Positions 6,600 to 48,876 of a DNA stretch of 64,000 nucleotides are shown here, in pieces (within the stretch, counting starts at the first letter, position 1; every line of letters begins with the position of its first letter). Source of the stretch: Leptolyngbyaceae cyanobacterium (GTDB lineage: Bacteria > Cyanobacteriota > Cyanobacteriia > Phormidesmidales > Phormidesmidaceae); contig JBHJHA010000058.1 in NCBI GenBank assembly GCA_050331235.1, forward strand, positions 1 to 64,000. Direction: 5' to 3'. Below the pieces are notes generated by a model that did no database searches, had not been told where the DNA came from, and saw nothing but the letters and a program-made list of their open reading frames with translations. The translations under genes were made by a program, and so were the position numbers.

Positions 6600-6705
6600 C
6601 AATTCTCTGTAATCGCGCTACAGATTTGCAGATCCCCCGCTGCCGCTGCCCCCTTGAAAAAGGGGCTTTGAAAAATCTATATGTAGTTGTGATTCGCAGA
6701 GATAG
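6600..6705. repeat. Dispersed ~106-bp MITE-like repeat, copy 1
   Basis: About 90% identical to the reverse complement of 22992-23097; imperfect terminal inverted repeats; central CCCCTTGAAAAAGGGG hairpin. Confidence 0.85.
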
Positions 6706-6830
6706 GATACCTGGTCGCAACTCCTTGATAGAACGACAACCCGTTCTCATCAACGGTAGCGTTCATCTCTCTAGTTCACTAAAAACCCAAACTTTCCACT
6801 GCTACAGCTCAGCTGGCTAGAAAATCACCA

Positions 6831-17516: not shown

Positions 17517-17628
17517 CTCGGGATATCGGGGCTCTAATCAAGCGCCCTGCGCCCCCCAGGGAAGGGCGAGAAGGAACGGGCCCTGGGCTCTCGGGATATC
17601 GGGGCTCTAATCAAGCGCCCTGCGCCCC
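17517..17628. repeat. 39-bp perfect direct repeat (17517-17555, 17590-17628) separated by 34 bp
   Basis: CTCGGGATATCGGGGCTCTAATCAAGCGCCCTGCGCCCC occurs twice; the second copy overlaps the recR 3' end. Confidence 0.95.
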
Positions 17629-22918: not shown

Positions 22919-22991
22919 CCCAGGTTCCTCAGGTCCATCGTGGCTCACGACTGAATTACGTGTCTCTTAACCCCAAACCCCGTCTCCTATA

Positions 22992-23097
22992 CTATTTCTG
23001 CGAATCACGACTACACATAGATTCTTCAAAGTCCCTTTTTCAAGGGGGCAGCGACAGCGGGGGCTCTTCAAATCTGTAACGCTATTACAGAGAATTG
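22992..23097. repeat. Dispersed ~106-bp MITE-like repeat, copy 2 (inverted)
   Basis: Reverse complement aligns to 6600-6705. Confidence 0.85.
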
Positions 23098-30334: not shown

Positions 30335-31654
30335 TTGGTCATCCATCATCTAGCAACCCTTCAGGAACAACGGAAATACCTCCGATGGTTGATTCAACTT
30401 CTTGGCTGCTTGAGCTGCGGTCTGGCGATCGCCTGTCAGTCCGACGTGTCCTCCAATGCGACCGATCCGACTCAGCAAGTCACCATCCTAGGTACTTTAA
30501 CGGGGAACGGAGAAGATAAGCTGATGGCAGCGATCGCACCATTTACGGAAGCGACCGGTATTGAGGTGACTTACGAAGGTACCGATGCCTTTGCCACGCT
30601 GATTGCCGTGCGGGTTGACTCAGGCAATGCCCCCGATATTGCCCTCTTTCCGCAACCGGGGCTGATGCTCGAGTTTGCCGAGCGGGGAGACTTAGTCCCC
30701 CAAAACCGTGCCGCCATAGCCGATGCCTATGCCCCCTACTGGCTCGACTTAGCCAGTGTTGGGGCAGATCTATATGGTGTCTGGATGCGAGCTGATGTCA
30801 AAAGCCTAGTTTGGTATAACCCTCAAGCCTTTGAGGCCGCCGGCTACACCGTGCCAACCACGTGGGATGAACTGCAAACCCTCAGTGACCAGATGGTTCA
30901 AGACGGCAACACACCCTGGTGTCTGGGCATGGAAAGTGGCGATGCTACGGGCTGGGTCGGCACTGATTGGCTCGAGGAAATATTGCTGCGTCAAGCTGGA
31001 CCGGACCTCTACGATCAATGGATTGCCCACCAAATTCCATTTACTCATCCGGCAGTTGAGCAAGCCTTAGAAACCTTTGGAGCGATCGCCCGCAATCCTG
31101 AGCAGGTCCGTGGCGGCCCGACGGGTGTCATCGGCACACCGTTTGGCGATTCCCCTAATGCTTTATTCAGCGAGCCGCCGGGATGCTACTTACATCGCCA
31201 GGCCAGCTTTATCAGTGACTTTTTGCCTAACGGTCTCGAACCCGGAAAAACAGTCGATGTATTTGGGCTACCACCGATGACGGCCACCGCCGAACGTCCC
31301 ATTTTAGTGGGAGGGATTGTCTATGCTCAGTTCAACAATACCTCCGCCGCGATCGCCCTCATGGAGCACCTCGCCTCGGCTCAGGCCCATGCAATCTGGG
31401 CTGGTGAAGGCTACATTACCCCCCACCAACAGGTCACTTTAGAAGCTTATCCCGACGACTTAACTCGAGATCAGGCGGCAATATTGCAACAGGCCGACAT
31501 CATTCGGTTTGACGGTTCTGACCTGATGCCCGGTGCTGTAGGCACCGGCACCCTTTGGACGGGCATGGTGGACTATGTCGGGGGTAAAGAGGCCTCTACC
31601 GTACTGAATGCGATCGAGCAAAGCTGGTCCGCCTCTCCTGTGGAAAACCAATGA
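30335..31654 (+). CDS. Carbohydrate ABC transporter substrate-binding lipoprotein (alpha-glucoside type)
   Basis: Lipobox-like LAIAC, PDIALFPQPG, KSLVWY, ATGWVGTDW, FDGSDLMPGAVG; start uncertain. Confidence 0.85.
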   Translation: MVIHHLATLQEQRKYLRWLIQLLGCLSCGLAIACQSDVSSNATDPTQQVTILGTLTGNGEDKLMAAIAPFTEATGIEVTYEGTDAFATLIAVRVDSGNAPDIALFPQPGLMLEFAERGDLVPQNRAAIADAYAPYWLDLASVGADLYGVWMRADVKSLVWYNPQAFEAAGYTVPTTWDELQTLSDQMVQDGNTPWCLGMESGDATGWVGTDWLEEILLRQAGPDLYDQWIAHQIPFTHPAVEQALETFGAIARNPEQVRGGPTGVIGTPFGDSPNALFSEPPGCYLHRQASFISDFLPNGLEPGKTVDVFGLPPMTATAERPILVGGIVYAQFNNTSAAIALMEHLASAQAHAIWAGEGYITPHQQVTLEAYPDDLTRDQAAILQQADIIRFDGSDLMPGAVGTGTLWTGMVDYVGGKEASTVLNAIEQSWSASPVENQ

Positions 31655-31667
31655 TCAATGCGGGTCT
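31629..31667. repeat. 39-bp direct repeat, left copy (partner at 47694-47732)
   Basis: CCGCC(T/C)CTCCTGTGGAAAACCAATGATCAATGCGGGTCT, 1 mismatch between copies. Confidence 0.92.
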
Positions 31668-31751
31668 CAAACCAGCCTAGCGAAGGATGCTGTATGGGGT
31701 TTTTTGCATAACCCCCCGAAAAGGTATATTCCACAATGAGATGCCTAAGTC

Positions 31752-32317
31752 TCAATCTGCCGATTGCACGACCTTCGTCCCATCCAGATAGCGATACACA
31801 CTAGCCTTCGAGAGTTTGTAATCCTGCATCAAGGTTTTGATGAGCACTCCCTGCGCTCGCTTCTGTCGCAGCTCCAAACACTGTTGCTCAGTCAAATGCT
31901 TATCTCGACCCAGCCTAACGCCACGGGCTTTAGCATTTTGGATGCCATCCATTTGGCGTTCAGCCCGGATTTGGTTTCAAACTGGGCAATGGCTCCCAGC
32001 ATATTGAAGAGTAGCCGTCCGGTCGCATCGCCGGTGTGAATGTTCTGGTCCAGCACTTGGAGATTGACCTGCTTTTGTTCCAACTGCTCAGCTAACTGAC
32101 AGAGATGAAGCGTGGAGCGTGCCAGCCGGTCTAAGCGCGTCACCACCAATGTATCGCCTTCCCTAATGTATTCGAGGCAGGCTTTCAGCCGAGGTCGCTT
32201 ATGGGAAGAGCCACTCCGCTTCTCCTGAAAGATCTTGTCACAATGCTTCAGTTTATCGAGTTGCACATCGAGACTTTGTCCTACAGAGCTGACCCGCGCA
32301 TAGCCGACGACAGCCAT
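31752..32317 (-). pseudogene. tnpR: Serine resolvase of Tn A, frameshifted near 31972
   Basis: VGYARVSS, VTRLDRLAR, AQFET; continues in another frame as (E)IRAERQMDGI..HTH SKASVYRY. Confidence 0.88.
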
Positions 32318-32319
32318 GA

Positions 32320-32430
32320 TCGCCCCCAAAGGTTTCAATAAGCCTAAGACTTTGTGAGAATCAAGTAATGAGACATGATTTGAGACACTAGTATGAGTAT
32401 GTCTCAAAAGGTCTACTTTCTGAGACTATC
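32320..32430. other. Putative res site of Tn A
   Basis: Repeated TGAGAC/GTCTCA inverted half-sites between the divergent tnpR and tnpA. Confidence 0.55.
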
Positions 32431-32468
32431 GTAAACGACGAAACGTCCCAGCGCGATCCTCCATTTCT

Positions 32469-35400
32469 ATGGCAAAGCAGATAGCAGCCCCGACTCAAAA
32501 ACGTCTGCACATCCTAGGGGATGACGAGATCGCCGACCCCTATGGACTCCCTCACTTCACCTCGGAGGAGCAAAGCGAGTACTTCGCACTATCACTGAGG
32601 GAAGCTATGGCCATCGAGCAGCTGCATAGCAGCTGCATAGCATTAAATCTCGGCTCTATGCCATTCTGCAACTGGGCTACTTCAAGGCCCGCCATCTCTT
32701 TTTTGTCTTCAGCTTTGAAAGGGTGGCAGCGGATGCCCACTATCTCCAGGAGCGCTACTTCCCCACGTTCCAGCTAACTGCGTTTGAGCCGACGAAGGTC
32801 ACGCGCCTGAAGCACCAGCGCATCATTCTTGAACTCTGCCATTACCGTATCGGCGCTGAGCCAGAGCGTCAAGCACTGAGACGCAAAGCCGAACAGGCCG
32901 CGAGGGTTTGCGGAAAACCCATCTACATCTTTCGCGAGCTGATGCATTACCTCGAAGAGGAGCGTATTGTTGCGCCTGGATATAGCTTGATGCAGGATAT
33001 CGTGGGTCAGGCCATTGCCGATGAGCAAGACCGATTGGTTGCCGTGATGCAACGGCGTCTGACACCGTCTGAGACAAAAGCCTTAAATCGGCTGATAGAA
33101 GACGTACCCGGACTGTACGAAATCACCCAGCTGAAACGAGAACCCAAAGATTTCAGCCTCGGTGAGGTGAAGCGTGAGATTCGTCGCAGCGAGCAGATTC
33201 AGTCGCTCTATCACCTGGCCCAGACGCTGTTGCCTGCGCTGAAGATTTCTGGTGAAAGTATGAAGTACTATGCGTCACTGGTGACCTACTACTCCGTCTT
33301 CCGGCTCAAGCAGTTGGCTCAGGGCACGGTACATGTGTATCTTCTGTGCTTTGTTTACCACCGCTACCAACGGGCACACGACAATCTCATCAACAGCCTG
33401 ATATATAACGTCAGACGGTATGTTGAAGCGAGCAAGGTAGCGGCTAAAGAACAGGTCTATGAGTACCGGATTGAGGGTAACCAAAACCTACAAAAAGCCG
33501 GTCAGATTCTCAAGCTGTTTACGGACGACACCATTGTCGAAACTACCCCCTTTCAAGAAGTTCAGACAAAAGCCTTTGAGATCCTAGAGCGTCAGAAGTT
33601 GACCGTCCTCGCTGAGCACATTGCCACCCAAGCTAGCTTCGATGAGACGGCTTTTCAGTGGGAGTACATAGACACTTTGGCACGGCAGTTCAAGTGCAAT
33701 CTACGGCCTATCCTACAAGCGATTGAGTTTGCCAGCGCCTCGGGGCATGTCCCTCTGCTAAAAGCGCTTCAGTTCTTGAAAGCCGCAGCTCAAAAAGGAC
33801 GATCCCTGAATCAATATCGGCCAGACTCGTTTCCCACCCAGTTCATTCCAGACGCAACCAAACGCTATCTCTACGCCTCGGCGGAAGCCGGTGGTCATCT
33901 ACTACCAGACCGCTACGAGTTCCTGGCCTACCGCCTGCTGCGCAACGGTTTGGAATCGGGCGACATTTTCTGTCGCGACAGCGTTCGCTTCCGCAGTTTT
34001 GAGGACGACCTGCTCAGCGAGCAGCAGTGGCAAGCCAAGACGGAGCTGATTACAGTAACCGGTCTGACAATACTCAAGCAACCGATTCAAGAGCATTTGG
34101 CTGCGCTCGAACAGCAGCTAGAATCACGGCTGGCTCAGGTGAATCAGCGCCTGAATGCTGGTGAGAATCCACATTTTGAGACCAAAAAGCGAGGTTCAAC
34201 CATCCGGTGGACGCTTCAGTCACCAGGCATTCGCGAGTCGATCAACCATCCGATGTTCAGTGCGCTGAAGCACGTCACCTCAGCAGCGTTCTGCATTTCG
34301 TCAATCAGCACTGTCAGTTTAGCGAGGCCTTTGAACACCACTTGGGACGTTACGTCAAACAGAAATCAGAGGACAGCGTGCTGATCGCCTGCCTGATTGC
34401 CTGGGGCACCAATATGGGACTGGGCCGTATGGCCGAGACCTTGGATATCAACTATCACGCCCTGGCAAACGCATCTGACAACTTTCTCCGTCCCGAGACG
34501 CTGAGAAAGGCCAACGATCGCGTCAGCAATGCCATGGCTGAGCTACCCATTTTTCGGCACTACGATATTGGCGGAGCCCTTCACTCCAGCAGTGACGGGC
34601 AAAAGTTCGAAAGCCAGATTCAGACCATCAATGCTCGTCATTCGCCCAAGTATTTTGGCTTGAAAAAGGGCATCGTTTCCTACACCCTGCTGGCCAACCA
34701 TGTGCCGGTCAATGCCAGAATCATCGGCGCGAATGAGCACGAGAGCCATTATGTCTTTGACCTGCTGTTCAACAACACTACAGAGGTACAGCCGACGATT
34801 CATTCCACGGATACCCATGGCACCAATGAGGTCAATTTTGCCATCTTGCACCTATTCGGCTATCAGTTCGCCCCGCGCTACCGGGATATTCATGACAAGG
34901 TCAGTCATGCGCTCTATGGATTCCAACACCCCAGTCAATATGAGGATGTCCTGCTCAAGCCGATTCGCAAGATCAATACCCCACTCATCATGGACGAGTG
35001 GGACAACATCCAGCGCATCATGGTGTCATTGGCCCTGAAGACGACCACTCAAAGCATCATTGTCAGCAAGCTGAGTGCCTATGCTCGCAGAAATAAGACC
35101 CGGCGGGCGTTGTGGGAGTACGACAACATCCTCAAAAGCCTCTATCTTCTGGACTATGTCGATTCGGTTCCCCTGCGTCAGAATGTCCAACGAGCCCTGA
35201 ACCGGGGCGAAAGCTATCATCAATTGCGCCGAGCCGTTTCCTACGCCAACTTCGGCAAGTTTCGCTTTAAAACTGAATACGAGCAACAGATATGGGGGGA
35301 TTGCGCTCGCCTGCTGACTAACTGCATCATCTATTACAACGCCTCTATCCTGTCCGACCTGATGACTCACAGCGATAGCTGTGGTGACGTGGCCAGGGTA

Positions 35401-35535
35401 GCCCTACTCAGCCAGGTGTCGCCAGTCGCGTGGCAGCACATCAATTTTTATGGTCGCTATGAGTTCAATAAGCAGCCTGAACCCATCGATATAGAAGCGA
35501 TTCTTCAACAGTTGATACAGCTGAGGATTGAGTAA
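32469..35535 (+). pseudogene. tnpA: Tn3-family transposase of Tn A, with two frameshifts
   Basis: ILQLGYFKA restored by removing an 11-bp duplication (32620-32641); 1-nt loss near 34277; SSDGQKF, STDTHG, LNRGESYH motifs. Confidence 0.92.
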
Positions 35536-35591
35536 GACTCACTCGTCTGATTGTGGAATATACCTTTTCGAGGGGTTATGCAAAAAACCCC

Positions 35592-36289
35592 TAGATGAGT
35601 TCAAGCGGCATAAAAACGCCCTGCTACTCATTGATGAGTGGACCATTATCGGAGCCACCACATTTCGATTCAACGAGCATCTCAAGCCGTTTATTGATGA
35701 TGTGTGCTCGACTATCACCACGCTATCCAGCCGGGGGCTACAGGCAGATCAAGCCGTATGGTTAATTGCCCCCCATTGCCGACTAGATTTCCTTGAAAAG
35801 TCAGCTAAGGCTCTGAAGCTTTGCAAGCTCTGTTTAGTCGCTGCTAACCCTGAGCGACCGTTCGATGTGGATGGCAATCGCATTGGATTTGATAGTGAGT
35901 TATTCGACCAAGTAAAGAACAACTGGAAAGACCTAACAGCGCCCCCAAAAGGTATTGATTCGCTCGACTCAGAACGGATTGCCTTTATCAATGGTCAATG
36001 GTTACCGCTGGGTTCCATCGAAGTTACGGTAACCAACTCGGAACCTGAGGGCGTAACCACCGTAACCAACTGCCACAGCAGCGATACAGCGCTTATCTAT
36101 ACCCGCTTATCGGAGGTGTGTAACTTGACGGTAACCGAGGTTACAGGGGCTTTATCTGCCCTTTCTCAGGGCCTAACTAAGACTCACATTATCAAAAACA
36201 TTTGGGGCTATACCGGGCGTAATTATGCCGACTATGCCGAACGATTTGACCAATTACAGCAACTTACTGAAGTGAATCAAGATGTCTAA
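35592..36289 (+). pseudogene. 5'-truncated P-loop ATPase-like gene with a C-terminal HTH-like region
   Basis: Walker-B-like LLLIDEW just after the Tn A IR; the ORF-track start lies inside the transposon end, so the true 5' end is lost. Confidence 0.5.
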
Positions 36290-37025
36290 GAACTCCCAAA
36301 ACAACTCCAACTCATTCGACAGAAACTTTGCTACTGGCATTCCTAGTAATGATGATATTTCGCGGTTGTTTTCTGCCCATCGCCGCTATGCCAAAAGCTA
36401 TAAGGAAAATCAGCGCAAGATGCGCATGTTCAAGTTTGCTAAGCGGATAGCTTGGGTGCTGTTTGCTGCCGATGTCTGGTTTAGTTTGCTGGGGATTCGG
36501 GCCTTTAGCGGTTCCCTCGAATTTGCCCTTTTTACAGCGGTGTTCGTAGGGGCTGGCCAGTGGGTCGTCAGTGAGTCGCTGCTGTCTAAATCGTTTGGCT
36601 CACTCATGAAGATAGACGCCGACAGCGACGGGGAAATCACCCTGGCTGAGTGGATGCGTTGGGGCATTCACTTATCAGCCCTGATCGTGGTCTACGGCCT
36701 TGATATTGCCACCAACTTGGCTGCCATTAATGGAGAGGTGTTGGGGACATTGCCCTTTACGATCGCCGGTGATACGGCTGCCAGTAGTGTGCCGATATGG
36801 GCTGCTTGGGTGGTATCCCTCATCATTTGCGGCATTCTCTGCTTTGCGGATGAGTGGATTCATTCAATCAGTGATTCCCGATTGGCAGAACTGGAGAGCG
36901 AGCAACCTGCCCTCAAAGAACGCGCCGCTGTCATCGAAGCCAAGTTGGCGGAAGCGGGGGCCTTCGGTGAAACCATCCTGACTAAGGCCACAGAGCGGGG
37001 GATGCAGCGTGGCCAAGCCTACTAA
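36282..37025 (+). CDS. Hypothetical membrane protein with an EF-hand-like loop and a coiled coil
   Basis: About 4 TM segments, DADSDGEITLAE, overlaps the upstream stop. Confidence 0.7.
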   Translation: MSKNSQNNSNSFDRNFATGIPSNDDISRLFSAHRRYAKSYKENQRKMRMFKFAKRIAWVLFAADVWFSLLGIRAFSGSLEFALFTAVFVGAGQWVVSESLLSKSFGSLMKIDADSDGEITLAEWMRWGIHLSALIVVYGLDIATNLAAINGEVLGTLPFTIAGDTAASSVPIWAAWVVSLIICGILCFADEWIHSISDSRLAELESEQPALKERAAVIEAKLAEAGAFGETILTKATERGMQRGQAY

Positions 37026-37203
37026 ACCCATCTTTCTCACCCAGCGCCGCTGGTATCACCGCGTCAAACCTCTGACATGGGTGCTGGTGGCGCTATTCAT
37101 TGCCGACATTGCCACCCCTGGCTATATGCGCTTTGACTTTCTGCTCTTTACGTTGGATGCGACCAATGCAGTCGAGTCATTCCACCATCACCCACATCCA
37201 TAG
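37009..37203 (+). CDS. Small hypothetical membrane protein
   Basis: GTG start overlapping the upstream gene, one TM segment. Confidence 0.4.
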   Translation: MAKPTKPIFLTQRRWYHRVKPLTWVLVALFIADIATPGYMRFDFLLFTLDATNAVESFHHHPHP

Positions 37204-38014
37204 AATTGGCTTGCCCTTGCTCGCTATCAGTCGAGAGCAAATGGTGCAGATCGCTTTAGCTGTTGCTGTCTCAGTACCGGCAGTGAACGCGATTATCGAC
37301 GGCTTGTTATCTCCCCTATTCCCTCAGCAGCAGGAACCGATACAGGCGATATCGAGCCATGCAGCCCCCTTTGAGCCGCTGGCAGTCTATGCCCCGCATT
37401 ACTACGATGAATCCCCACTTGGTAGTTATGACCTAACGCTGGTGGACCCGGTAACTGATAGCGAAGCGGTAGCTGTGCCTAGTCCCTGCAATGGCACGGT
37501 AAGCACTACTGGAGCCGATGGCGGTTATGGCAACTATGCGGAGATTCTATGCGATGACGGCAACGCTATTTTTGTCGCTCATGCCTCTGAGGTCTGGGTA
37601 AACAAAGGTGACGCCCTTCGCAAGGGTCAAGCGTTCATGGTGCAGGGGTCGACCGGCAACAGTACGGGGCCTCACTTGCATGTAGAGATTACGCCGCCCG
37701 ATGGGGATAGAACTAATCGAGCTAAAACGGAGCCGGTGATGGAGCAAGCGATTGCCTTTTGGGAGGCGGGCGTATCGCCGGTTTCACCTGTTGCTAGCGC
37801 TGCTGGCGAGGCTTTAGATGATGCTACTTTGCGATGTGCTATCGGTGCCGCTGAAGGCACGATGAACGACGATTGCACGCCAAACCATAACTACGATGGC
37901 CATATTGATCCGGGTAATGGGGCGGCTAATCTTGGGGCCTTCAGCTACCAGCACGGTGCTAGCTCGCCACAGGAAGGCCCCAAAGTAGCGAAGCTGCGAT
38001 TTGGGGCAATTTAG
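37100..38014 (+). pseudogene. M23 peptidase-domain protein, C-terminally truncated by a TIR cassette
   Basis: GGYGN, AHA, GSTGNSTGPHLHVE; second domain AIGAAEGT..GHIDPGNG..FSYQHG runs into the IR at 37970; start uncertain. Confidence 0.72.
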
Positions 38015-39437
38015 TTCCTTTGTATTGTTTGACCCCTAATCCTATAACCAAGCCCAAATGGGCTCAGATTAATTGCCAACAGCTCGCAAACAAACCTTTC
38101 GGCTCAGATTAACTGCAAATAAGCTGAAAGGCTTGACTAACCCTCATTAACTCTGAAAGTGAATCTCGACGATGCCGAGGTTGCCAAAATCCGCGGTGAC
38201 GGTAACACCGAGATCAGTAGACAGTGGCCCAATGGCAGCTCCGGTGGTCACCCAGTCCCCAGCTTTAATCATCAGCCCACGCTGAGCCAGGTGATTCGCT
38301 AGCCAGGTTAATGAATTGAGGGGATTGCCCACGACATTGGCTCCGGTCTTGGTCGCAGCTAGTTGGCCATCGAACAGAGCACGGACAATGCAGGTGGACA
38401 GATCGAGCTGCTGCCAATTGGGCACGGCGGGGGCATACACAAAGCTGTAATTGCCCCCATGGTCGGCAATGAGACCGGGCGCACCACCCTGGGCTGGACC
38501 ATTGACGAGACGGCTACCCACTGGTTCGATAGCCGGGTGCAGGGTGTCTGCGGCGGCGGTAACGGCGGCAACGGAATAGGGTGCCCCCTGGGGCGGCAGG
38601 TCTTTGCCCATGCGAAATGCAAACTCAAACTCGAAGCCATACAGGGTGGCGCTGCTATCGGTGATAGTCTGGGGGGTCGGCCCCACTAATGACTCAAACA
38701 AAGGACCGGCGATAGGTTCGCTGACATGGGCCAGTTGCTGTAGGGGTTCGTTGGTCAGGGCCACCTTCCAACCCACTTGCGGGATGCCAATATCTTGCCG
38801 AAGCTGGTCCTGAACGGCGTAGGCTTCGTCAAGGGTTGCGGGAACCGCCGTTGGCGGGAGATGAATGCGCTGGTTTTTGCGTCTGGCGGTAATCAGGAGT
38901 TCAGCCGCTTGTTTGGTGTCAACCATGTTTCTTTCTCTGTGATTCCTTTATAGCCGAGTGAACCATAGAAGACAGCATGACCACTTCAAGGGCATGGAAC
39001 AGCAGGTGAAACTAGACCCCAGACCCAGCAGCCACACTGCACCGACCGATCCCTATACAAAGATCAAATGCTAGTAATGCTATCAAGAGAGTGTCCATTA
39101 AGCTAAAAGTCTTTACTAGTAGGGCATTCAACAATTTTTAGCCAAATCGACTAGCTGCGCTGCTCCGCAACTAGTCGATGACTGATGAGAGGTTAAAACA
39201 GCTTTTACCACAAGGATCACAGCCGATTTCTATTGATGATGTCTGGGTAGATGAGTCTCACCAAATTAGGGCGTTGCAGCTGTACTATCAGCTCACAACT
39301 TAGGCCATATTTAGGCCAAGCGCTTCCAGGGAACTGAGACTTATTTTAAGACTACCTTCCTCTATCAATGATGCTTTTATAGTTCAAAAGAACTAAATTG
39401 CCCCAAATCGCAGCTTCGCTACTTTAAGGCCTTCTTG
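37970..39437. mobile_element. Non-autonomous TIR cassette carrying a passenger gene
   Basis: 48-bp inverted repeats at 37970-38017 and 39390-39437 (45/48 match); no transposase inside. Confidence 0.8.
38147..38926 (-). CDS. 2-keto-4-pentenoate hydratase / FAH-family protein
   Basis: EAYAVQ, GWKVALT, EFEFAF, IADHG, GNPLNSLTWLAN, GDWVTTG. Confidence 0.85.
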   Translation of the reverse strand: MVDTKQAAELLITARRKNQRIHLPPTAVPATLDEAYAVQDQLRQDIGIPQVGWKVALTNEPLQQLAHVSEPIAGPLFESLVGPTPQTITDSSATLYGFEFEFAFRMGKDLPPQGAPYSVAAVTAAADTLHPAIEPVGSRLVNGPAQGGAPGLIADHGGNYSFVYAPAVPNWQQLDLSTCIVRALFDGQLAATKTGANVVGNPLNSLTWLANHLAQRGLMIKAGDWVTTGAAIGPLSTDLGVTVTADFGNLGIVEIHFQS

Positions 39438-39645
39438 GGACGACAATCCAAGGCACTGCCGCTCGGCCGCACGCGGATGTTACTCACGCTTCGAAGTGAG
39501 CTACGGCATCGGTTTTCGGGTAGTTTGCGCCGCCTCGTGGGATTTTTCGTAACCCTTTGCCCTCTTGCCCTTTGCGGCACAAAAATAGTTTATTTGTACT
39601 ATTAAGGGGTTTCGTACAGGATAAGCTCCTAAAACGATAATTTCT

Positions 39646-39685
39646 TAAAGATATAAAGGTATTAGATGTTTATGCGTTTAAGTTA
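39646..39685. repeat. Tandem 8-bp array (parS-like)
   Basis: TAAAGATA TAAAGGTA TTAGATGT TTATGCGT TTAAGTTA; related arrays at 40810 and 42040. Confidence 0.6.
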
Positions 39686-39716
39686 TAAGAGCCCTGAAGA
39701 GGTAAGCCCGCAGGGC

Positions 39717-40793
39717 TCAAGGGGCAGATTCTTCGTTGCCCTCGTGCGTTTGCAGATCGCGCACGGCAGCGTCTAGCTCCATCTCCAATTGTTCGGCGCT
39801 AGGCAGGCTGGTTTGCAGGTCGGGGGGCAGCTCGTCACGTAGCTTATAGGTCGAGACGCCGATCGGATTTTCCATCATGTCGAGGGCAAACTCGACGATG
39901 GTGCGCTTCTTCGACCGACAGAGCACAATGCCGATTGTGGGGTCGTCCCGCTCACCACACAGCAGATAGTTCACCGCCTTCACGTAGAAGTTCATTTTGC
40001 CTGCATATTCTGGCTTGAATTCGGTGGTCTTGAGGTCAATGACCACGTAGCGGTGGAGTTTGATGTGGTAGAACAGCAAATCAATAAAGAACTCATCGCC
40101 TTCGAGCTCCAGCCGGTACTGGCTGCCGACGAAGGCAAAGCCGACCCCGAGTTCCAACAAAAAGTCGCGAATGCGATCCACTAGGGCACGTTCGAGGTCG
40201 CGTTCCTGAGCGGCCTTGTCCAATGTGAGGAACTCAAAGTTGTAAGGGTCTTTGAGCAGTTGCCGTTGGAGGTCTGACTGTTCGGGCGGCAGGGTCTTCT
40301 CAAAGTTGGTGACTGCCCCTCCCTGCCGCCCGAACAGATGAGTTTCGATCTGCATCACCAGAATGTCTCGGCTCCAGCCATTTTCTAGAGCTTGCTGGCC
40401 ATACCAGAGCCGTTCTTCGGTGCTCTTGAGCTTTTCGAGTAGGGCGATGTTGTGCCGCCAGGGTAATTGTCCAACGCAGCGTTGGACAATTAGTTCATCG
40501 GGCCAGGCTTCGGCAAAGGCCCGCATATACATTAGATTCGAGCGAGAGAATCCCTTGATATCGGGAAACTCCCGTTTCAAATCCTGTGCTAGTCGTTGGA
40601 TGACCTTGGCGCCCCAATTTTCCTGGGCCTGCCGCTGCAAGATTTCGCGCCCAATTTGCCAATAGAGTTGAATCAGCTCTTGGTTGACAGCCAACGCTGC
40701 GCGTACTTGGGCCGACCGAATCCGTTGTTTCAGCCCATCTAACAGCGCGAAGTAATTTTCCTCTTCAGGGAATAGGGGACTATTGGTAGACAA
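39717..40793 (-). CDS. DUF1016 / YhcG PDDEXK nuclease-domain protein (cargo copy)
   Basis: AVNQELIQLYWQIG, GFSRSNL, LPWRHN, KDPYNFEFL, LELGVGFAFVGSQ, IDLLFYH, GKMNFY. Confidence 0.92.
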   Translation of the reverse strand: MSTNSPLFPEEENYFALLDGLKQRIRSAQVRAALAVNQELIQLYWQIGREILQRQAQENWGAKVIQRLAQDLKREFPDIKGFSRSNLMYMRAFAEAWPDELIVQRCVGQLPWRHNIALLEKLKSTEERLWYGQQALENGWSRDILVMQIETHLFGRQGGAVTNFEKTLPPEQSDLQRQLLKDPYNFEFLTLDKAAQERDLERALVDRIRDFLLELGVGFAFVGSQYRLELEGDEFFIDLLFYHIKLHRYVVIDLKTTEFKPEYAGKMNFYVKAVNYLLCGERDDPTIGIVLCRSKKRTIVEFALDMMENPIGVSTYKLRDELPPDLQTSLPSAEQLEMELDAAVRDLQTHEGNEESAP

Positions 40794-40849
40794 GGCCCAA
40801 CTCCTTGGCTAAAGGTATTAGACGTTTATATATTTAAGGTATATAGAAA

Positions 40850-41263
40850 TCAAAGATTTAAGGCTTCCTTGAGGTCCTCAATGTTGTGAATTGCTTCCCA
40901 GTCCAGGTCTTGGGCCTTGAGGAGATCGATGGCTGCGCCAATGAGGTGTTGTGGATAGACCCGCTCGTTGGGGGGCACAGCATATTCATTGTTGTCACGC
41001 ACCTGTTGGGCAGTGTCCTGTAGCCAGCGCTGCTGCTTCCGTTCAATCTTGATATTCACTGTTGTCAAGGTTTCTTTGCGACGGCGCTTGGCCTTCGTCT
41101 TAGGGGTAGCTTTCGTTGCGTCGGTGGGCGCTGCTGCCTCGGTCGGTGCTGGCGGTGGCGGCGTGGCTTCCTCCGCGACGGCGGTCTCCGTCTGCGCCGC
41201 TGGCTGTGAGACCCCCCCGAACGAACTCAAACTCAGATTTCCCATCCGTTTCTTCGTAGTCAT
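40850..41263 (-). CDS. Putative ParA partner / centromere-binding protein
   Basis: ATGA-coupled to parA; disordered N-terminus and a beta-helix-helix-like C-terminus (TTVNIKIER..). Confidence 0.6.
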   Translation of the reverse strand: MTTKKRMGNLSLSSFGGVSQPAAQTETAVAEEATPPPPAPTEAAAPTDATKATPKTKAKRRRKETLTTVNIKIERKQQRWLQDTAQQVRDNNEYAVPPNERVYPQHLIGAAIDLLKAQDLDWEAIHNIEDLKEALNL

Positions 41264-41979
41264 TGCAGTCCCCATACTTTCAAACATTCTTTGGCGAGTG
41301 AGCGATAGGCCGTCGCCCCGGAAGATTTGGCGTCGTAGTCAGCGACGGGCACCTGCTGAGCGATAGATTCAGCGATCGCAATGTTTTCGGGAATGAACGA
41401 ATGCAGCAAGCGATAGTCGAGATCTACAGAGCCGGCGATCAGCAGGTCATCGGCTTCCCGTGACAACACCAAGCGACTTTTGTACCGCGATCGCAAAACT
41501 TCGATGGGTACGTCGGGTCGCTCACCCCGGATCAGCCCAATCGCTTCCGAGATGCCTTTCAAGCTGGCAGGTTCACATAAGGTCGGCATAATGACGCGAT
41601 CGGCATTCAATACGGATTGTACTGATGGCAGCCCTAAGCTAGGTGGGCAGTCCATCAGACACACATCATAACCTCTTAGACCTTAAATGGATGGAGCGAT
41701 TAAATCTTTATCAGCTGATAATCTAAACATCCCAATGTCACCAGCGATGAGATGCAGCTTCTCGACGGAAGTGGTTAAGGGTTCACCGCTACCATCTAGC
41801 CAATCTAAAATGGTTGGCTCTGCACCATCGAGCCCCAACGAGAAGGAGATCGTTCGCTGCCCATCTAGATCAATAAGGACGGTTTCGTATCCAGCCCGCG
41901 CAATTTCAGCACCCAAGTTGAGGGCGGTTGTGCTTTTAGAGGTGCCACCTTTCAAATTCCAAACAGCGACTTTCAGCAT
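41260..41979 (-). pseudogene. parA: ParA-family ATPase with an internal in-frame TAA (41683-41685)
   Basis: NLKGGTSKSTT, IDLDGQ, DCPPSLG; the two ORF-track pieces are in the same frame (APSI*GLRGYDVCLMDCPP). Confidence 0.88.
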
Positions 41980-42275
41980 GGTGGTTCATTGTGAGGACAT
42001 AATGACTTTATGTCATTAACCTTCGTTCTGAATAACAGTTAAAGGTCTAATATGTTTATCTGATTAAATGTGCCAGTTGACGAAAATCGCTGGACTGAAT
42101 CTGGATTATTTGCTGATGAAAGGAACTGTGCCAGTTGGCTGAAGCCCTTGAAACCTCGTGACCAGTAAAAACGGGGTCAAAAAGCGCGATCGCCCCGGTT
42201 TGCCAAGCTTTCCTCCATATTTAACGGAGGGAGTAGTTGCCTTGTGTCGCAGCGCTTCCAGAAAGGGTTAACGCT

Positions 42276-42887
42276 TTAACGCCCTGCGGCATGAAAAATA
42301 GCGTCGGCGGTGAGCGACAAGGCGGGGAAGGTCATCGAGACGATGCGATCGCTGCTGCGAAACTGTCGTAGCTGATATTCACCCTTCTCTAGGCTGTAGA
42401 CCGAAATGGTCGGCGTTTTCGGCGAGCCAATATAGCGAGTTGCTCCAACTGCCAGGTAGTCAACAATCCAATATTCCAGGATGCCGAGCGCTTCATACTC
42501 AGCCAGCTTGTAGAGATAGTCGTCGCGCCAATTGGTTGAACTCACCTCTACGGCGAGCTGAATCGGCTCCTCCAGAGCCGCATATGCTTTCGGGTCAGAT
42601 GTCCAAACGGTTTTATCAATCACACTCACGTCCGGAGTCCGACCTTGCACCAAACCGTCATCGCGGCGAGTTTTGACGGAAGCAAATCGCGAGACTTTGT
42701 AATGGAGCTGATCGCGTCTGACTTCGTCGCGGAAGGCATCGTAGATAAAGTCGGCTACATCATCATGGGCGCGAGTTGCCATTAGCTGAACTTGTTCCCC
42801 GTTAACCAATTCATAGCGATTGCCATCTTCTGGCATCGCCTCCAGAAATTGCAGAAAGCTGAGTGGTGGAGCAAGCGCTTGAGTCAT
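42276..42887 (-). CDS. Uma2-family endonuclease
   Basis: RYELVNG, PDVSV, LAVEVSS, KLAEYEALGILEYWIVD. Confidence 0.92.
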   Translation of the reverse strand: MTQALAPPLSFLQFLEAMPEDGNRYELVNGEQVQLMATRAHDDVADFIYDAFRDEVRRDQLHYKVSRFASVKTRRDDGLVQGRTPDVSVIDKTVWTSDPKAYAALEEPIQLAVEVSSTNWRDDYLYKLAEYEALGILEYWIVDYLAVGATRYIGSPKTPTISVYSLEKGEYQLRQFRSSDRIVSMTFPALSLTADAIFHAAGR

Positions 42888-43028
42888 GATGACGATAGCC
42901 GCAGCTATATGACAGTAGTGGTATGAGGTACCTCTAGTTTACGGGGTTTGAGTAGTAATAGAACAGAAACCTACGCTAAGGCTGAAGTCCTTGCGTTACA
43001 GTCTTCCTGGGCCTTAAAGCGAGCAATA

Positions 43029-44237
43029 TCATTTAGGAATCATCTGTAGCTGGGCATTAATCTCACCAAGTTCAGCCTCCTCTGGGTCAAAGAATCCCCC
43101 AACCCATTCGAGCATCTCCTCATGTTCAGGATGCTCCACGTCTTGGATGGTCTCTAGGAACTCCTGATAGCCCCAAACCCCACCACAGTCTTCCGGTGGA
43201 CAGGCACGCTTGGCTTTGATGCAAACGGGATAGCTAACATCAGGCTCCGCTGGGAGAACCTTTTCAACCAGGACGTCATGCTCCCAGGAGTCTCCGAAGT
43301 CATACAGATAAGAGAACTTAAACTTTTCTCCTGGTACGAGGCGACTCAATTTGACCGCCTGTTCGTCACGTAAGTCCATCTCATCAAAGCCTAAGTCAGG
43401 CATGGGGACGCCATACTCAACGCCTTGAACATGGAAGGAATGGAGGTGTGAATTTGTCCACCCCATTGAGAGCTGAACCACCCAGTGCAACTGCCCTAGG
43501 GTGATATCACTGGGCACCTGTACCCGCCGCCAAATCGGTGGCCGGATGTCCTTGAGGGTGATTTTGAGTTGGTAGATTGATGGAGCTTTCTTTCGAGGAG
43601 CCATTTTAGAGCGCGGGGGATAAAAATCGGGGTGAGTTTCGCGGTGACGTTTCACAATCTCAGTAACTGTCGTCTTGCTGAGCTTCAAATGATGGGCAAC
43701 GGTTCGATAGGCCGTTCCCGCCTCCACCATCTGTATCACTTTTGGGGCCAGCGGGTCTGACTTAATCCGTTGGCCTGGTCGGCGGCCCAAAAGCTTTCCT
43801 CTAGCCTTCGCGGCGGCCAACCCTGAGCGGACTCGTTCGCTGACTAAATCGCGTTCAAACTCTGCCAGCGCTGCCATCAACTGGGCAATCAGACGGCCTT
43901 GCGGGGTCGTTAAGTCGAACTGTAGTCCGGTTTGGGCAATCAAGGAGACTTGCCAACTGTGTAAAGCTTGCAACGTTTGAATCAGGTCTAGAGTGCTGCG
44001 GCCCCATCGAGTCAGTTCGGTCACGAGGACGGCATCAATCTTCCGAGCTTGCGCCAAGGCCATCACCTGCTCTCGTTCAACTCGGGATGACCTTGTCCCT
44101 GGGGCGGTCTCCTTCCACACGCCAACCACCTGGAAATTGGCTTGGGTAGCGTAGTGCAATAAGTCCTGCTCTTGTCGGTCACAGGACTGATCCATGGTTG
44201 AGACCCGGCAATAAATGGCAATCCTTTTTTGTACCAA
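43029..44237 (-). CDS. Serine resolvase fused to a pRiA4b ORF-3-like domain
   Basis: AIYCRVST, ELTRWGRS, AEFERD; then IYQLKITL..PPIWRR..SHLHSF..YDFGDSWEH..CPPEDCGG. Confidence 0.88.
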   Translation of the reverse strand: MVQKRIAIYCRVSTMDQSCDRQEQDLLHYATQANFQVVGVWKETAPGTRSSRVEREQVMALAQARKIDAVLVTELTRWGRSTLDLIQTLQALHSWQVSLIAQTGLQFDLTTPQGRLIAQLMAALAEFERDLVSERVRSGLAAAKARGKLLGRRPGQRIKSDPLAPKVIQMVEAGTAYRTVAHHLKLSKTTVTEIVKRHRETHPDFYPPRSKMAPRKKAPSIYQLKITLKDIRPPIWRRVQVPSDITLGQLHWVVQLSMGWTNSHLHSFHVQGVEYGVPMPDLGFDEMDLRDEQAVKLSRLVPGEKFKFSYLYDFGDSWEHDVLVEKVLPAEPDVSYPVCIKAKRACPPEDCGGVWGYQEFLETIQDVEHPEHEEMLEWVGGFFDPEEAELGEINAQLQMIPK

Positions 44238-44292
44238 TTAAACCCTTCTGACTTTAGAGGGCTGAAACCCGCGATGTGTCGTACCGTTTTGG

Positions 44293-44324
44293 TGTACCAA
44301 TCAGACTATACTCTGACTGGTACA
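44293..44324. other. Putative res subsite of Tn B
   Basis: TGTACCAATCAGA-CTATAC-TCTGACTGGTACA palindrome between the divergent resolvase and tnpA. Confidence 0.55.
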
Positions 44325-44354
44325 AATTATGATGGGATTAGCTACCTCAGTCGC

Positions 44355-47300
44355 ATGCCTGTTCGTTTTCTGACGGAAGAGCAACAACAGCGCTATGGGT
44401 GCTATCTAGACACACCAACTGAGCTTCAGCTGGACCGATACTTTCATCTCGATGACGTAGACCGACAACTGATAGCTGCACGCCGGGGCGACCACAATCG
44501 GTTGGGGTTTGCCGTGCAGTTGGGAACTGTGCGTTTCTTGGGGACCTTCCTGGCCAATCCAATTGAGGTGCCGCCCAACGTCGTTGACTATTTAGCGCAG
44601 CAGCTAGAGGTCGCTAGTACGAGTAGCCTGCCAACTTATCTGGAGCGAGAGGAAACCCGCTGGGGACACACGGCGCTGATCAAGCGTCACTATGGCTACC
44701 AGGATTTTAGCGCTCAGCCAGCACACTGGCGATTTATTCGTTGGCTCTATGCTCGCGCCTGGGTAGGAACAGAAGGCCCCAGCGTTCTCTTTGATATTGC
44801 GACAACGCAGCTGCTGGAGCAGAAAATTTTACTCCCTGGCGTCAGCGTCTTGGAACGGTTGGTAGCGACTGTGAGGGAGCGGGTGTCACAGCGGGTATGG
44901 AAGGTCTTGTCACGTCTGCCGACAGCTGAGCAATGCCAGCGCCTGGACGCCATTCTCAAAGTGGATGAGGATGCTAGGCAAACGGTCCTTGATCAGCTCA
45001 GGCGCTCACCGACGCGCCATAGCGCTCCAGCGCTGGTGGCGGCACTTCATCGGTTAAAGCGGATACGGGCCATTGGCGTCAGCCATCTGGTGATGCCAAT
45101 GGTTCCGCCCAGTCGGTTGAAGGCGTTGTCACGAGCTGCATTCACCTCCCGCGCCCAGACTATTCAGCGGATGCCGAAAGCTCGGCGGATAGCGACGTTG
45201 TTAGCCTTTGCCCGTGATGTCGAAGCGACGGCCCAGGATGATGCGCTGACGGTTCTAGAGCTACTCACAAAAGAATTGTTGTCCAAATCAGCGAGTCAAG
45301 GAAGAAAGAAACGGCTGCGGACACTCAAAGATTTAGATGCGGCGGCGCTGACGTTGAGTACCGCCTGCGCCATTCTCATAGCGCCAGAGCAGGAAGTTAC
45401 TCAGCTGCGCGAGACAATCTTTGCTCAGGTTCCCCCAGAACAACTAGCAGCAGCGGTCGAGCCGGTGGAATCCATTGCCCGCCCACCAGATGACCAATAT
45501 TACCCTGAGATTTTGAGTCGCTGGCGCACCGTGCGGTTATTCCTGCCGACGCTGTTGAATACGATTGACTTTCAGGCAACCCAGGCAGGGCAGGACATTC
45601 TAGCGGCGGTAGCCTTTCTCAAATCGATTGAGGGCAAGCGTAAGCCTGTCATGACGGAGGCTCCTTTATCGATTGTCAGCAAAGGCTGGTGGCGTTGGGT
45701 ATGTCCAGCTCCAGGCGAAATTGATCGCCGTGCCTACACTTTCTGTGTGCTGGAACAGTTGATGAATGGGCTGCGCTGCCGGGACTTGTACGTGTCTCCG
45801 AGTGTGCAGTGGAGCAACCCACAGGAAAAATTGATTCAGGGCCGCGAGTGGGTGGCGGTGCGCAGCCAGGTCTGTCGCACGTTGAATCTTGCGCCGAAGC
45901 CTGATGAGAAATTAACGCAGCTAAAGCAGCAGCTCAATGATGCTTACCACCGGACGGCTCAGAATCTGCCCAACAATGATGCTGTACAAATTGTTGAGCA
46001 AGAGAACGGGCGACCAACCCTGACAATTAGCCCGCTAGAGAAGCTAGAAGAGTCTGAAAATTTGCGATCGCTCAGGGCGAAGGTGACGCCCCTGCTGCCT
46101 CGGGTAGATCTCCCGGAAGTACTGCTAGAGACTCACGAAAAAACAGGCTTTCTCGATGCTTTCTCTCATGCTCATGAGGAAGGTGCTCGCGCTGATAACC
46201 TCACCACTAGCCTCTGCGCTGTCCTGGTGGCGATGGCCTGTAACATTGGGCTCAGACCGTTGCAGCGTAAGGATACGCCTGCGTTAACGAAGCATCGTTT
46301 GGCTTGGGTGAAGCAGCACTACATTCGAGCTGAAACACTCGTTGAATCGAATGCTTGTTTGGTGAATGCACAGAAAAATGTTCCCATTGTTCAGGCTTGG
46401 GGTGGCGGTGAGGTCGCTTCTGCCGATGGTTTAAGGTTTGTCGTGCCAGTGAAAACATTAAATGCTGGCCCTAATCGCAAGTATTTCAGCAGCGCGGGGT
46501 ATTACCTACTACAACTTTGTCTCAGATTTGTTTGCTGGGTTTCACGGCCTAGTGGTGACCGGGACGCTGAGAGATTCGTTGGTCGTGCTGGTCGGCTTGC
46601 TGGAGCAGCGGACAGGGCTGAGGCCGCGCGAACTGATGACGGATACGGCAGGTTACAGCGATATCGTCTTTGGTCTGTTCTGGTTACTGGGCTATCAGTT
46701 CAGTCCGCGCCTGGCCGACACTGGTGAGGCCCGCTTCTGGCGACTCGACCCAAAGGCTGACTATGGTGTACTCGATGGGATAGCTCATCAGAAGGTGAAA
46801 GTGCATCTCATTGAAAACTCGTGGGACGACATGCTACGGGTAGCTGGGTCGCTCAAGTTCGGTAGGGTCAGCGCTTTGGAAATTATGCGCGTGCTACAGA
46901 AGGGCGGGAAGCCGTCTACGTTGGGCAAGGCCATTGGTGAGCTGGGCCGGGTGGCGAAGACATTGTATTTGTTGCACTACATCGATGATGAGGATTATCG
47001 GCGACGCATTCTTATCCAGCTCAATCGAGGGGAAGGGCGGCACAGTTTGGCCAGGGCGATCTGTCATGGCAACAAAGGGGAGATCCGGCAGCGCTATCGT
47101 GAGGGGCAGGAGGATCAACTCAATGCGCTGGGGCTGGTCACCAATGCTGTCATTCTCTGGAATACTCTGTACATGGATAGAGCCCTTGATCACCTCCGTG
47201 CTCAGGGCTTAGAGATCGATCCTGACGACATCGCTCGGTTGTCGCCGCTGGGACATATCCATATCAATATGCTCGGTCGTTATTACTTCGAGCTGGCTGA

Positions 47301-47367
47301 GGCACTCAAGGAGGGTGGGTTTAGGCCGCTGCGGAACCCTGATGACCCAAATGAGCCATTTTACTAG
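44355..47367 (+). pseudogene. tnpA: Tn3-family transposase of Tn B, frameshifted near 46490
   Basis: MPVRFL, NRLGFAVQLGTVRFLG, ASADGLRF; then RGITYYNF, MTDTAG, QLNRGEGRH in another frame. Confidence 0.92.
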
Positions 47368-47436
47368 GCTCGAAGCTAAGCGTGGCAACGGATGTAGCCT
47401 TAGCGCAGGTTTCTGTTCCGTTACTACTCAAACCCC

Positions 47437-47682
47437 TATCCTGTCCGACCTGATGACTCACAGCGATAGCTGTGGTGACGTGGCCAGGGTAGCCCTACTC
47501 AGCCAGGTGTCGCCAGTCGCGTGGCAGCACATCAATTTTTATGGTCGCTATGAGTTCAATAAGCAGCCTGAAACCATCGATATAGAAGCGATTCTTCAAC
47601 AGTTGATACAGCTGAGGATTGAGTAAGACTCACTCGTCTGATTGTGGAATATACCTTTTCGAGGGGTTATGCAAAAAACCCC
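47437..47682 (+). mobile_element. Second copy of the Tn A right end (246 bp)
   Basis: Near-identical to 35346-35591 (one substitution seen). Confidence 0.95.
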
Positions 47683-47693
47683 TGTATCGGATC

Positions 47694-47732
47694 CCGCCCC
47701 TCCTGTGGAAAACCAATGATCAATGCGGGTCT
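47694..47732. repeat. 39-bp direct repeat, right copy (partner at 31629-31667)
   Basis: Contains the stop codon of the DUF1016 gene. Confidence 0.92.
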
Positions 47733-48784
47733 TCTTCTTCACCCGGACTGGCCGCCATCTCTAGGGGAACAGCTTTGAGTTCTTTTTCTAACCGTTCGAC
47801 CGACGGGAGCTGCGTTTCTAAGGGAGCCGGGATTGTCCGATGCGTGGAAATCCCAATAGGCTTTTGCAAATCCCGTAGGGCATATTCAGCGATCGTTTTA
47901 TTTTTGGCTCGGCACAGAATTAAGCCAATCGTCGGGCCATCATCGGGATGCCGGAGCAAGTCGTCGATCGCCGATACGTAAAAATTCATGCGACCAGAAT
48001 ATTCCGGCTGAAAGTCTCCCATCTTTAAATCAATGACGACAAAGCACCGCAGCTTCAGGTGATAAAATAACAGATCTACATAAAAGTCTTCGCCACTTAC
48101 TTCTAAATGGTGCTGACTCCCTACGAAGGCAAAGCCAACACCCAGCTCCAACAAAAAGTCGCGAATGTGATCAACCAGCGCCTGCTGCACCTCTCGTTCC
48201 TGAGCATCTGCCGAGATCGTTAAAAAATCAAACGTGTAGGAATTTTTGACAAGATCCCTAGCCAAATCAGACTGGAGCTCAGGGAGCGTTTGCTCAAAAT
48301 TAGTAATCGCGTCACTTTTGTGTCGACTGTAAAGCTGCTGGTCAATCTGAGTCAGAAGGATATTGCGGCTCCAGCCGTGGGCGATCGCCTGCTGGGCGTA
48401 CCACAGTCTGGCTTCAGGGTCCTTGATCGCCTCCATCAAGCGAACATTATGCCCCCAGGGCAGGTTAGCCATCACCTCGTGCAACACCGCTTCATCCGGA
48501 TAGGTTTCGGCAAAGGCCCGCATGTAGTGCAGATTGCGCGGAGAAAAACCTTTCATGCCGGGAAACTCGCCGCGTAGGTCCTGGGCAATGCGCTCAATGA
48601 CCTTACTGCCCCAACCCTGTGCTGTCTGACGTTGTAAAATTGCTTGCCCAATCTGCCAGTAAAGCAGGACCAGCTCCCGATTGACCGCTAAAGCCGACCG
48701 AACTTGTGCCCGCCGAATATGATCTTTTAGCTGCGTAATCAGATGCTCATATTCAGGGGTCTGGGAAGGCAGCAAAGCAGACAT
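47720..48784 (-). CDS. DUF1016 / YhcG PDDEXK nuclease-domain protein (chromosomal copy)
   Basis: AVNRELVLLYWQIG, GFSPRNL, LPWGHN, LELGVGFAFVGSQ, VDLLFYH. Confidence 0.92.
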   Translation of the reverse strand: MSALLPSQTPEYEHLITQLKDHIRRAQVRSALAVNRELVLLYWQIGQAILQRQTAQGWGSKVIERIAQDLRGEFPGMKGFSPRNLHYMRAFAETYPDEAVLHEVMANLPWGHNVRLMEAIKDPEARLWYAQQAIAHGWSRNILLTQIDQQLYSRHKSDAITNFEQTLPELQSDLARDLVKNSYTFDFLTISADAQEREVQQALVDHIRDFLLELGVGFAFVGSQHHLEVSGEDFYVDLLFYHLKLRCFVVIDLKMGDFQPEYSGRMNFYVSAIDDLLRHPDDGPTIGLILCRAKNKTIAEYALRDLQKPIGISTHRTIPAPLETQLPSVERLEKELKAVPLEMAASPGEEEDPH

Positions 48785-48806
48785 AACGACACACGATTCA
48801 TTCCAA

Positions 48807-48876
48807 GAATCTGCAACAGGCTGTTGCAAGATTCACATCGTACCGCCTCGAGATAAATGTGCAACGGGCTGTTGCA
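48807..48876. promoter_or_regulatory. Two TGCAAC-N5-GTTGCA palindromes upstream of the DUF1016 gene
   Basis: Cores at 48812-48828 and 48860-48876. Confidence 0.6.

Follow-up and report, generated by a model that had tools for sequence, protein, structure and literature searches.

How might a bacterial chromosome come to hold, at two places, 39 bp of its own sequence duplicated around 34 bp of unique sequence? The question is raised by a 64,000-nt stretch of DNA from a mat-dwelling Leptolyngbyaceae cyanobacterium (assembly GCA_050331235.1, contig JBHJHA010000058.1, positions 1 to 64,000; hereafter the window, whose numbering gives the coordinates below). Here one such 39+34+39 scar lies beside recR, and a second, at 31629..47732, is split by a 16-kb block carrying Tn3-family transposons. 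That the 39+34+39 arrangement is real has been confirmed. As for its origin, we give a little better than an even chance to off-array integration of a CRISPR spacer by Cas1-Cas2, followed by Tn3 insertion.

Two duplications of one geometry

In the split scar, the two 39-bp copies are identical at 38 of 39 positions, with the mismatch at position 6, and their identity does not extend past 39 bp on either side. TGTAT stands at 31691-31695 and again at 47683-47687, immediately outside GGGG-ended inverted repeats whose outer limits are 31696 and 47682. Scripted excision of 31696-47687 leaves 34 bp between the repeats and thereby a period of 73. What has been duplicated is host sequence, namely two gene ends: each copy holds the abutting stop codons TGA|TCA (31652-31657 and 47717-47722) of a sugar-binding protein gene and a convergent DUF1016 gene, whose open reading frames (ORFs) end at 31654 and 47720. 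A preliminary description of the window had put forward these repeats, their single mismatch, the 34 bp left after excision and the abutting stops, all of which our script and the ORF ends bear out. It also placed the duplication and insert before the transposon, an order with which the intact 5-bp target duplication inside the 34-mer agrees. Its single 16-kb Tn3 transposon was right as to an insertion within the 34-mer with a 5-bp target duplication, but the inserted DNA is composite.

The companion scar, between convergent ABC-permease and recR genes, was computed with the same 39+34+39 plan and 73-bp period that had been described for it, and its 39-bp copies are 100% identical. They comprise the last 19 coding nt of recR, its stop codon and 17 downstream nt; because the duplicated codons encode the conserved C-terminus of the protein, this repeat is host target and not DNA of an element. 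No promoter- or terminator-like site was found at this scar. The two scars had been called unrelated in sequence, which holds for the repeats but less so for the inserts: that of the recR scar (17556-17589) has 13 of 34 positions in common with the other, including GAAGGA in register at positions 15-20, a weak likeness. A shared in-register run of at least six between the two 34-mers has P=0.007, calculated post hoc. A loxP-like or inverted-end reading of the 34-mers was rejected on their arms, which are non-palindromic in register.

The reality of the repeats was examined in the Logan contigs of sequencing run X1, possibly the source sample, which were assembled separately. Among them are contig ends at 17546 and 31664 and contig starts at 17599 and 31638, the exact branch points of a graph of 31-letter words when each repeat has two contexts, and the contig starting at 31638 continues through the left half of the spacer into the transposon. 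Because the X1 contigs break exactly at both repeats, the scars are not an artefact of the studied assembly. The observation that might speak for such an artefact is that contig ends in the studied assembly overlap by 141 bp; the assembler behind these overlaps is presumably one that uses k=39 among its steps, its identity and list of k values both being our assumption. We nevertheless hold an artefact to be extremely improbable, given the branching of the Logan contigs and their left spacer-transposon junction, the mismatch in one repeat pair, and the expectation that an artefact would not be limited to one contig. DNA of this host is present in stromatolite sequencing runs. Parts of the 16-kb insert are covered at low depth in runs X2-X4, and among the joints listed for runs X2-X5, in which cover is patchy and depth low, none lies over either scar. 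In X1, depth (which is not copy number) is 10.7-12.3 for the five longest contigs in the insert, 13-15.4 for its element B and 10.5-12.9 for the flanks. The same run gives very high summed depth for 22988-23097, the second arm of an inverted pair of 110 nt with 90% complementarity (first arm 6600-6709), perhaps a small repeat element that is widespread. Elsewhere in the assembly, one contig begins with a run of about 85 C (G000:C102:1-85), probably a sequencing artefact.

Scars of this kind are rare in the genome. The periodicity scan suggested in the preliminary description was extended to three scans plus self-BLAST over all 118 contigs (4.80 Mb). Near period 73, low-complexity and coding tandem repeats aside, these gave only the recR scar and one CRISPR unit (C49:7537-7646), so that with the split scar the genome holds two scars and one CRISPR unit of that period. 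Self-BLAST returned 41 two-copy repeats of 28-60 nt at 90% identity or more, and both of the 39-nt ones are the two scars. Other candidates were rejected: a period-70 unit on C77 is by eye a decayed tandem duplication, a 37-mer on C18 and C59 lies in a region with a paralogue on C39, and the remaining matches are tRNA pairs or coding repeats. Rfam gave no matches in the window. The assembly also contains 47-bp direct repeats 15 kb apart (G000:C37:39126-39172 and 54166-54212), the second beside tRNA-like sequence, a candidate att-flanked island.

This rarity bears on the possibility of two unrelated accidents of repair or template switching, each adding a short foreign piece and a duplication, with sizes equal by chance. 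No target-sequence signature was seen, and both intergenic regions vary in relatives (61-739 bp from the sugar gene to a DUF1016-like ORF), as such accidents would allow. Units made of a duplication and a unique insert are, however, so rare in the genome that two alike, and at the CRISPR period, are unlikely to have arisen by chance, and we consider this explanation quite unlikely.

Off-array spacer integration and its competitors

Staggered, concerted insertion of about 35 bp with duplication of 35-40 bp of target is the signature of Cas1-Cas2. The 73-bp period is common to both scars and the orphan CRISPR unit on C49, and two scars of identical geometry with the period of the genome's own CRISPR unit fit one mechanism with a fixed ruler better than slippage. 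In the history that we favour, a spacer would have been inserted outside an array by a Cas1-Cas2 integrase that probably belonged to type I-D and is now missing from the assembly. The two 3' ends of the prespacer would have been joined to opposite strands 39 nt apart, and gap repair would have copied those 39 nt to give the duplication. Both scars may then have survived because the duplicated convergent stop codons leave both genes intact. Subsequently, replicative transposition of a Tn3 element likely fused a plasmid into the spacer as a cointegrate, which may have stayed unresolved because its resolvase is frameshifted, and which would later have been trimmed next to element B.

Off-target integration of spacers in vivo has been reported (Nivala, Shipman and Church, 2018, according to the accessible parts of 10.1101/148544, PMC7054753, PMC6698737 and PMC6607411). 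The type I-D Cas1-Cas2 of Synechocystis integrates without a leader at a low rate, as far as the available text of PMC6607411 goes, and the duplicated length varies with ruler motifs in types I-E and II-A (PMC5039180 and PMC6895254, likewise available in part).

That the necessary machinery was once present is plausible from the genome and genus. The unit at C49:7537-7646 is a genuine CRISPR repeat-spacer-repeat of type I-D-like dimensions (37+36 = 73). It belongs to an orphan array (G000:C49:7480-7646, L050) of two 37-bp repeats and a degenerate third, beside a fragment resembling an insertion sequence and 69 bp from the contig end. A search of 300 other genomes of the class for the 28-nt core of its repeat, with up to 3 mismatches allowed, found it in none. 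In its end, the repeat matches those of 37 bp in two relatives, G007 and G011, where the arrays adjoin type I-D Cas1d, Cas10d and Cas7d genes. In these two sets of arrays (109 and 42 units), the period is 71-74 in 88% and 86% of units and exactly 73 in 16% and 45%, and spacers of 34 nt make up 30% and 7%. From these periods, spacers and Cas genes, it is plausible that a type I-D system with fitting dimensions once existed in the lineage; cas1 occurs in 7 of 13 other genomes of the genus. Contig G012:C397 (L058) carries two inverted copies of a region with a 563-aa cas1-containing ORF, either a real inverted duplication or an assembly fold-back.

As in the type I-E neo-CRISPR of Escherichia coli (Nivala, Shipman and Church, 2018, as far as accessible accounts describe it), host DNA is duplicated off-array around a unique insert of spacer size, and the unit equals the host CRISPR period. 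In contrast to that case, the scars here are natural, fixed in a cyanobacterial chromosome and likely of type I-D; the duplication is 2 bp longer than the cognate repeat, at a site unlike the repeat; the assembly holds no cas genes; and one spacer was later split by a transposon. With type I-D adaptation in Synechocystis (PMC6607411, in the part available), there are in common the 37-bp-repeat arrays and 34-37-nt spacers of the genus, the orphan unit in the genome, and leaderless integration, whereas the scar repeats are coding host sequence without a leader and the assembly has no Cas1d. The scars are probably a natural instance of an off-target error known mainly from laboratory experiments, although their membership in that class is unproven. 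A literature search, which most subscription papers lay outside, found no survey of natural off-array scars in cyanobacteria; a catalogue of CRISPR-like false positives exists, many of them unclassified according to its accessible text (PMC5294841).

Several observations weigh against a Cas1-Cas2 origin. The duplication measures 39 bp and the cognate repeat 37 bp; a true 37 would be seen as 39 in both scars through chance end-matches with P=0.011, and a true 38 with P=0.08. In their resemblance to type I-D repeats, the duplicated 39-mers do not stand out from random ones (p 0.09-0.92, for two sites and three reference repeats). Searches with hidden Markov models (HMMs) found no cas1, cas2 or cas6 in the 95.5%-complete assembly, and in tblastn with the ORFs of 16 congener cas loci, the identified core Cas ORFs had no match there. 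Nor was a protospacer found in phage, plasmid, viral, metagenome or genome collections, the collection scans being exact-match and with the recR insert only. The cas1-carrying relatives G011 and G007 showed no scars of this type in the 0.8 Mb and 0.4 Mb scanned, although about 0.5 scars would be expected there at this genome's density, so that the scan excludes high densities only. Neither an empty nor a transposon-free allele was found: the other runs are patchy, and the nearest genomes are 71-79% identical, a distance at which gene order and the origin of the repeats are visible and the immediate empty allele is not; this negative does not count as evidence. The empty allele with abutting genes that had been postulated is one that we only infer.

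Two further points concern the assumption that the events were independent. The preliminary description saw two independent events of the same size; the geometry and period agree with it, but the events may not be independent, as the only two scars in the genome lie 14 kb apart (P=0.005). Moreover, it supposed a neutral site later struck by chance. This is unproven and calls for a coincidence with odds of roughly 1 in 2,000 at best: if independent, the landing of the assembly's only Tn3 insertion in either 34-mer has a chance between 1 in 1,935, when convergent intergenic DNA alone is counted, and 1 in 70,517. The 14-kb spacing, the hexamer shared in register and the landing of Tn3 in the 34-mer are points that independent events leave unexplained. 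The spacing and the landing could both be explained if the region were a hot spot or the events were directly coupled.

In the coupled form, a Cas1-Cas2 intermediate would have received the Tn3 cointegrate during one plasmid invasion, in a 30-kb region prone to both enzymes. This joins three rare events, and we regard it as a long shot. Full-site integration would leave a 34-bp duplex between two 39-nt single-stranded gaps, fork-like and clamp-loaded, and the misfiring CRISPR integrase would itself have made the landing site of the invader. Transposases of the Tn3 family need the sliding clamp and show a preference for the terminus region (PMC11417375, as far as its accessible text goes), and they bind fork-like DNA (bioRxiv 10.64898/2026.05.30.728999, with the same restriction). 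In our genome, GC skew gave too weak a signal to place a replication terminus.

Some of the same observations fit a local process independent of Cas proteins, with a fixed stagger of 39 nt. The scars might then be two ends of one event, for instance a 14-kb replacement from recR to the sugar gene by a donor with 34-bp tails. The presence of just two scars in 4.8 Mb, so close together and identical in their 39/34 geometry, would suit such a process, as would the central GAAGGA of both inserts and the failure to find cas genes. Even so, we judge it unlikely. The period equals the CRISPR unit; neither insert is the inverted repeat of the other, nor do they form palindromic recombination sites; the segment between the scars is ordinary in GC content and octamer density; and to our knowledge, no enzyme other than Cas1-Cas2 has this geometry.

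The source of the inserts was sought in several collections. Within the genome itself, both 34-mers match at 22-23 of 34 positions at best, against 22-26 for shuffled controls. The insert of the split scar has no further copy there, and the 34-mers are not the ends of any repeated element, a possibility that had been raised beforehand. Phages and plasmids gave only chance-level matches (E 0.4 or worse) or none, and exact scans with the recR insert gave 0 matches each in viral, metagenome and genome collections. An 18-nt match over a repeat-spacer junction in 7 congeners was set aside as chance: it falls each time in one and the same part of an ORF that by eye resembles SbcC, and it goes no further than the 18 nt.

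If spacer integration by Cas1-Cas2 is the true origin, the scars would be a natural fossil of off-array integration in a cyanobacterium without cas genes in its assembly. The type I-D ruler could then yield 39-bp duplications at non-cognate sites, and such scars would persist where they straddle convergent stop codons. Later insertions can hide scars, and scans for short periods thus undercount them. The improbable landing of Tn3 within the spacer also suggests a connection, open to testing, between the gap intermediates of Cas1 and the choice of targets by Tn3.

The 16-kb block in the split scar

The block consists of two Tn3-family elements and plasmid genes, and is not one transposon (Table 1). 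A DDE_Tnp_Tn3 transposase, GGGG-ended terminal inverted repeats and a 5-bp target duplication are all present. The ends of element B carry no 5-bp duplication. The transposases of elements A and B are the only Tn3 transposases in the assembly. The octamer GCGATCGC, which we take to be HIP1, occurs at 1.35/kb in the host, and at 0-0.54/kb inside the block versus 1.3-1.5 outside. Its abundance, the cyanobacterial-type Cas1d of congeners and the occurrence of this DNA in stromatolite runs all make a cyanobacterial host likely.

Table 1. Positions of the two scars, their flanking genes and the parts of the block within the window
Feature	Position	Strand	Remarks
Companion scar, 39 bp + 34 bp + 39 bp	17517..17628	+	between convergent ABC-permease and recR genes
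Sugar-binding protein gene (SBP_bac_1)	30335..31654	+	
Repeat copy 1, 39 bp	31629..31667	+	last 26 nt of sugar-binding gene including stop, and spare copy of last 13 nt of DUF1016 gene
Left part of 34-bp insert, first TGTAT at its end	31668..31695	+	
Tn3-family element A	31696..35591	.	terminal inverted repeats; frameshifted resolvase ~31750-32407 (minus); transposase split over 32469-35535
Plasmid-like cargo, 7.35 kb	35592..42942	.	M23 peptidase, hydratase-family gene, second DUF1016/YhcG, split ParA, Uma2
Tn3-family element B	42943..47436	.	resolvase-PRiA4_ORF3 fusion, split transposase
Right-end remnant, second directly oriented copy of element A	47437..47682	+	99.2% over 250 bp
Second TGTAT and final 6 bp of 34-bp insert	47683..47693	+	
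Repeat copy 2, 39 bp, 1 mismatch	47694..47732	+	spare sugar-gene end and working DUF1016 end
DUF1016/YhcG gene	47720..48829	-	

Because the right ends of element A point the same way, plasmid genes lie between them, a 5-bp duplication encloses the whole and the resolvase is frameshifted, the block is likely an unresolved Tn3 cointegrate, later trimmed beside element B. Between the copies of element A lie ParA and plasmid-type genes, among which no replication gene was identified. The resolvase of element A changes frame ahead of its helix-turn-helix tail. As in Tn3-family cointegrates, there are GGGG-ended inverted repeats, DDE_Tnp_Tn3, a resolvase, an outer 5-bp duplication, and copies in the same direction around plasmid genes; here, however, the second copy is about 250 bp beside another Tn3 element, and the resolvase and transposases are frameshifted. 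A composite transposon moving by its outer ends would give the same 5-bp duplication.

Integrative elements restore the 3' end of a gene, and their attL and attR direct repeats hold the gene end. The split scar resembles them in its direct repeats with a gene end around foreign DNA. It differs in that no integrase is present, the insert before the transposon measured 34 bp, and the geometry recurs at another site whose repeats are unrelated. This likeness raises the further possibility that the whole 16,026-bp block arrived at once, from a circular donor inserted into a 39-bp site (att-like or by single-crossover insertion-duplication), with the match to the recR scar coincidental. Such an arrival would dispense with the improbable step of a transposon entering a 34-mer, and the plasmid-like cargo and the one base at which the repeat copies differ would both fit it. 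We nevertheless think it improbable. No integrase was found among the 22 ORFs scanned in or beside the block, which include only resolvase-type serine recombinases and Tn3 transposases, and the phage-integrase matches in the assembly sit on other contigs, none on that of the scars; an integrase-mediated island, which the preliminary description had left as a possibility, finds no support here. Furthermore, the 5-bp duplication shows that the Tn3 composite entered the 34-mer, which leaves a pre-transposon circle of merely 73 bp; both the 39 and the 34 would have to match the recR scar by chance; viral and metagenome collections contain no exact match to a 24-nt core of the repeat; and the closest CGATCG is not at a junction but 12 bp beyond the repeat.

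Several minor features of the block were recorded. Frameshifts interrupt four genes over 31750-47367, namely resolvase A, the two Tn3 transposases and parA; those in element A and parA look real because the Logan contigs run over both without gaps. At 37964-39443, 59-nt inverted repeats surround a hydratase/decarboxylase-family gene (38147-38926), and in runs X1 and X2 there are loose contig ends at 37975-38108, which suggest that these ends occur in other contexts, as would those of a mobile unit that is small and non-autonomous. The second DUF1016 gene and the parA region are bracketed by three AT-rich 34-nt repeats, related to one another and spaced about 1.2 kb apart (39654, 40810 and 42040), which are possibly recombination or operator sites.

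The two loci in related genomes

In 3 congeners the permease gene lies next to recR, and in 2 other genes part them; no scar-type repeat was seen at any of 12 recR loci. At the other locus, the sugar gene is followed by a convergent DUF1016-like ORF (named by visible resemblance) in 8 of 11 same-genus loci, at the distances given above, and none of the 9 loci examined there has a scar-type repeat. Repeats of att type, which had been considered beforehand, were thus seen at neither locus in the genus. The 24-nt repeat core likewise had 0 exact matches in metagenome and viral contigs. In one congener, the tail of the DUF1016 protein has the same length and a common Asp-Pro; the comparison is consistent with an ancestral arrangement in which the sugar and DUF1016 genes abutted. 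Three congeners (L006, L008 and L010) carry visibly related inserts of 600-740 bp between the sugar gene and the DUF1016-like ORF, and because of these, the junction appears to take insertions repeatedly.

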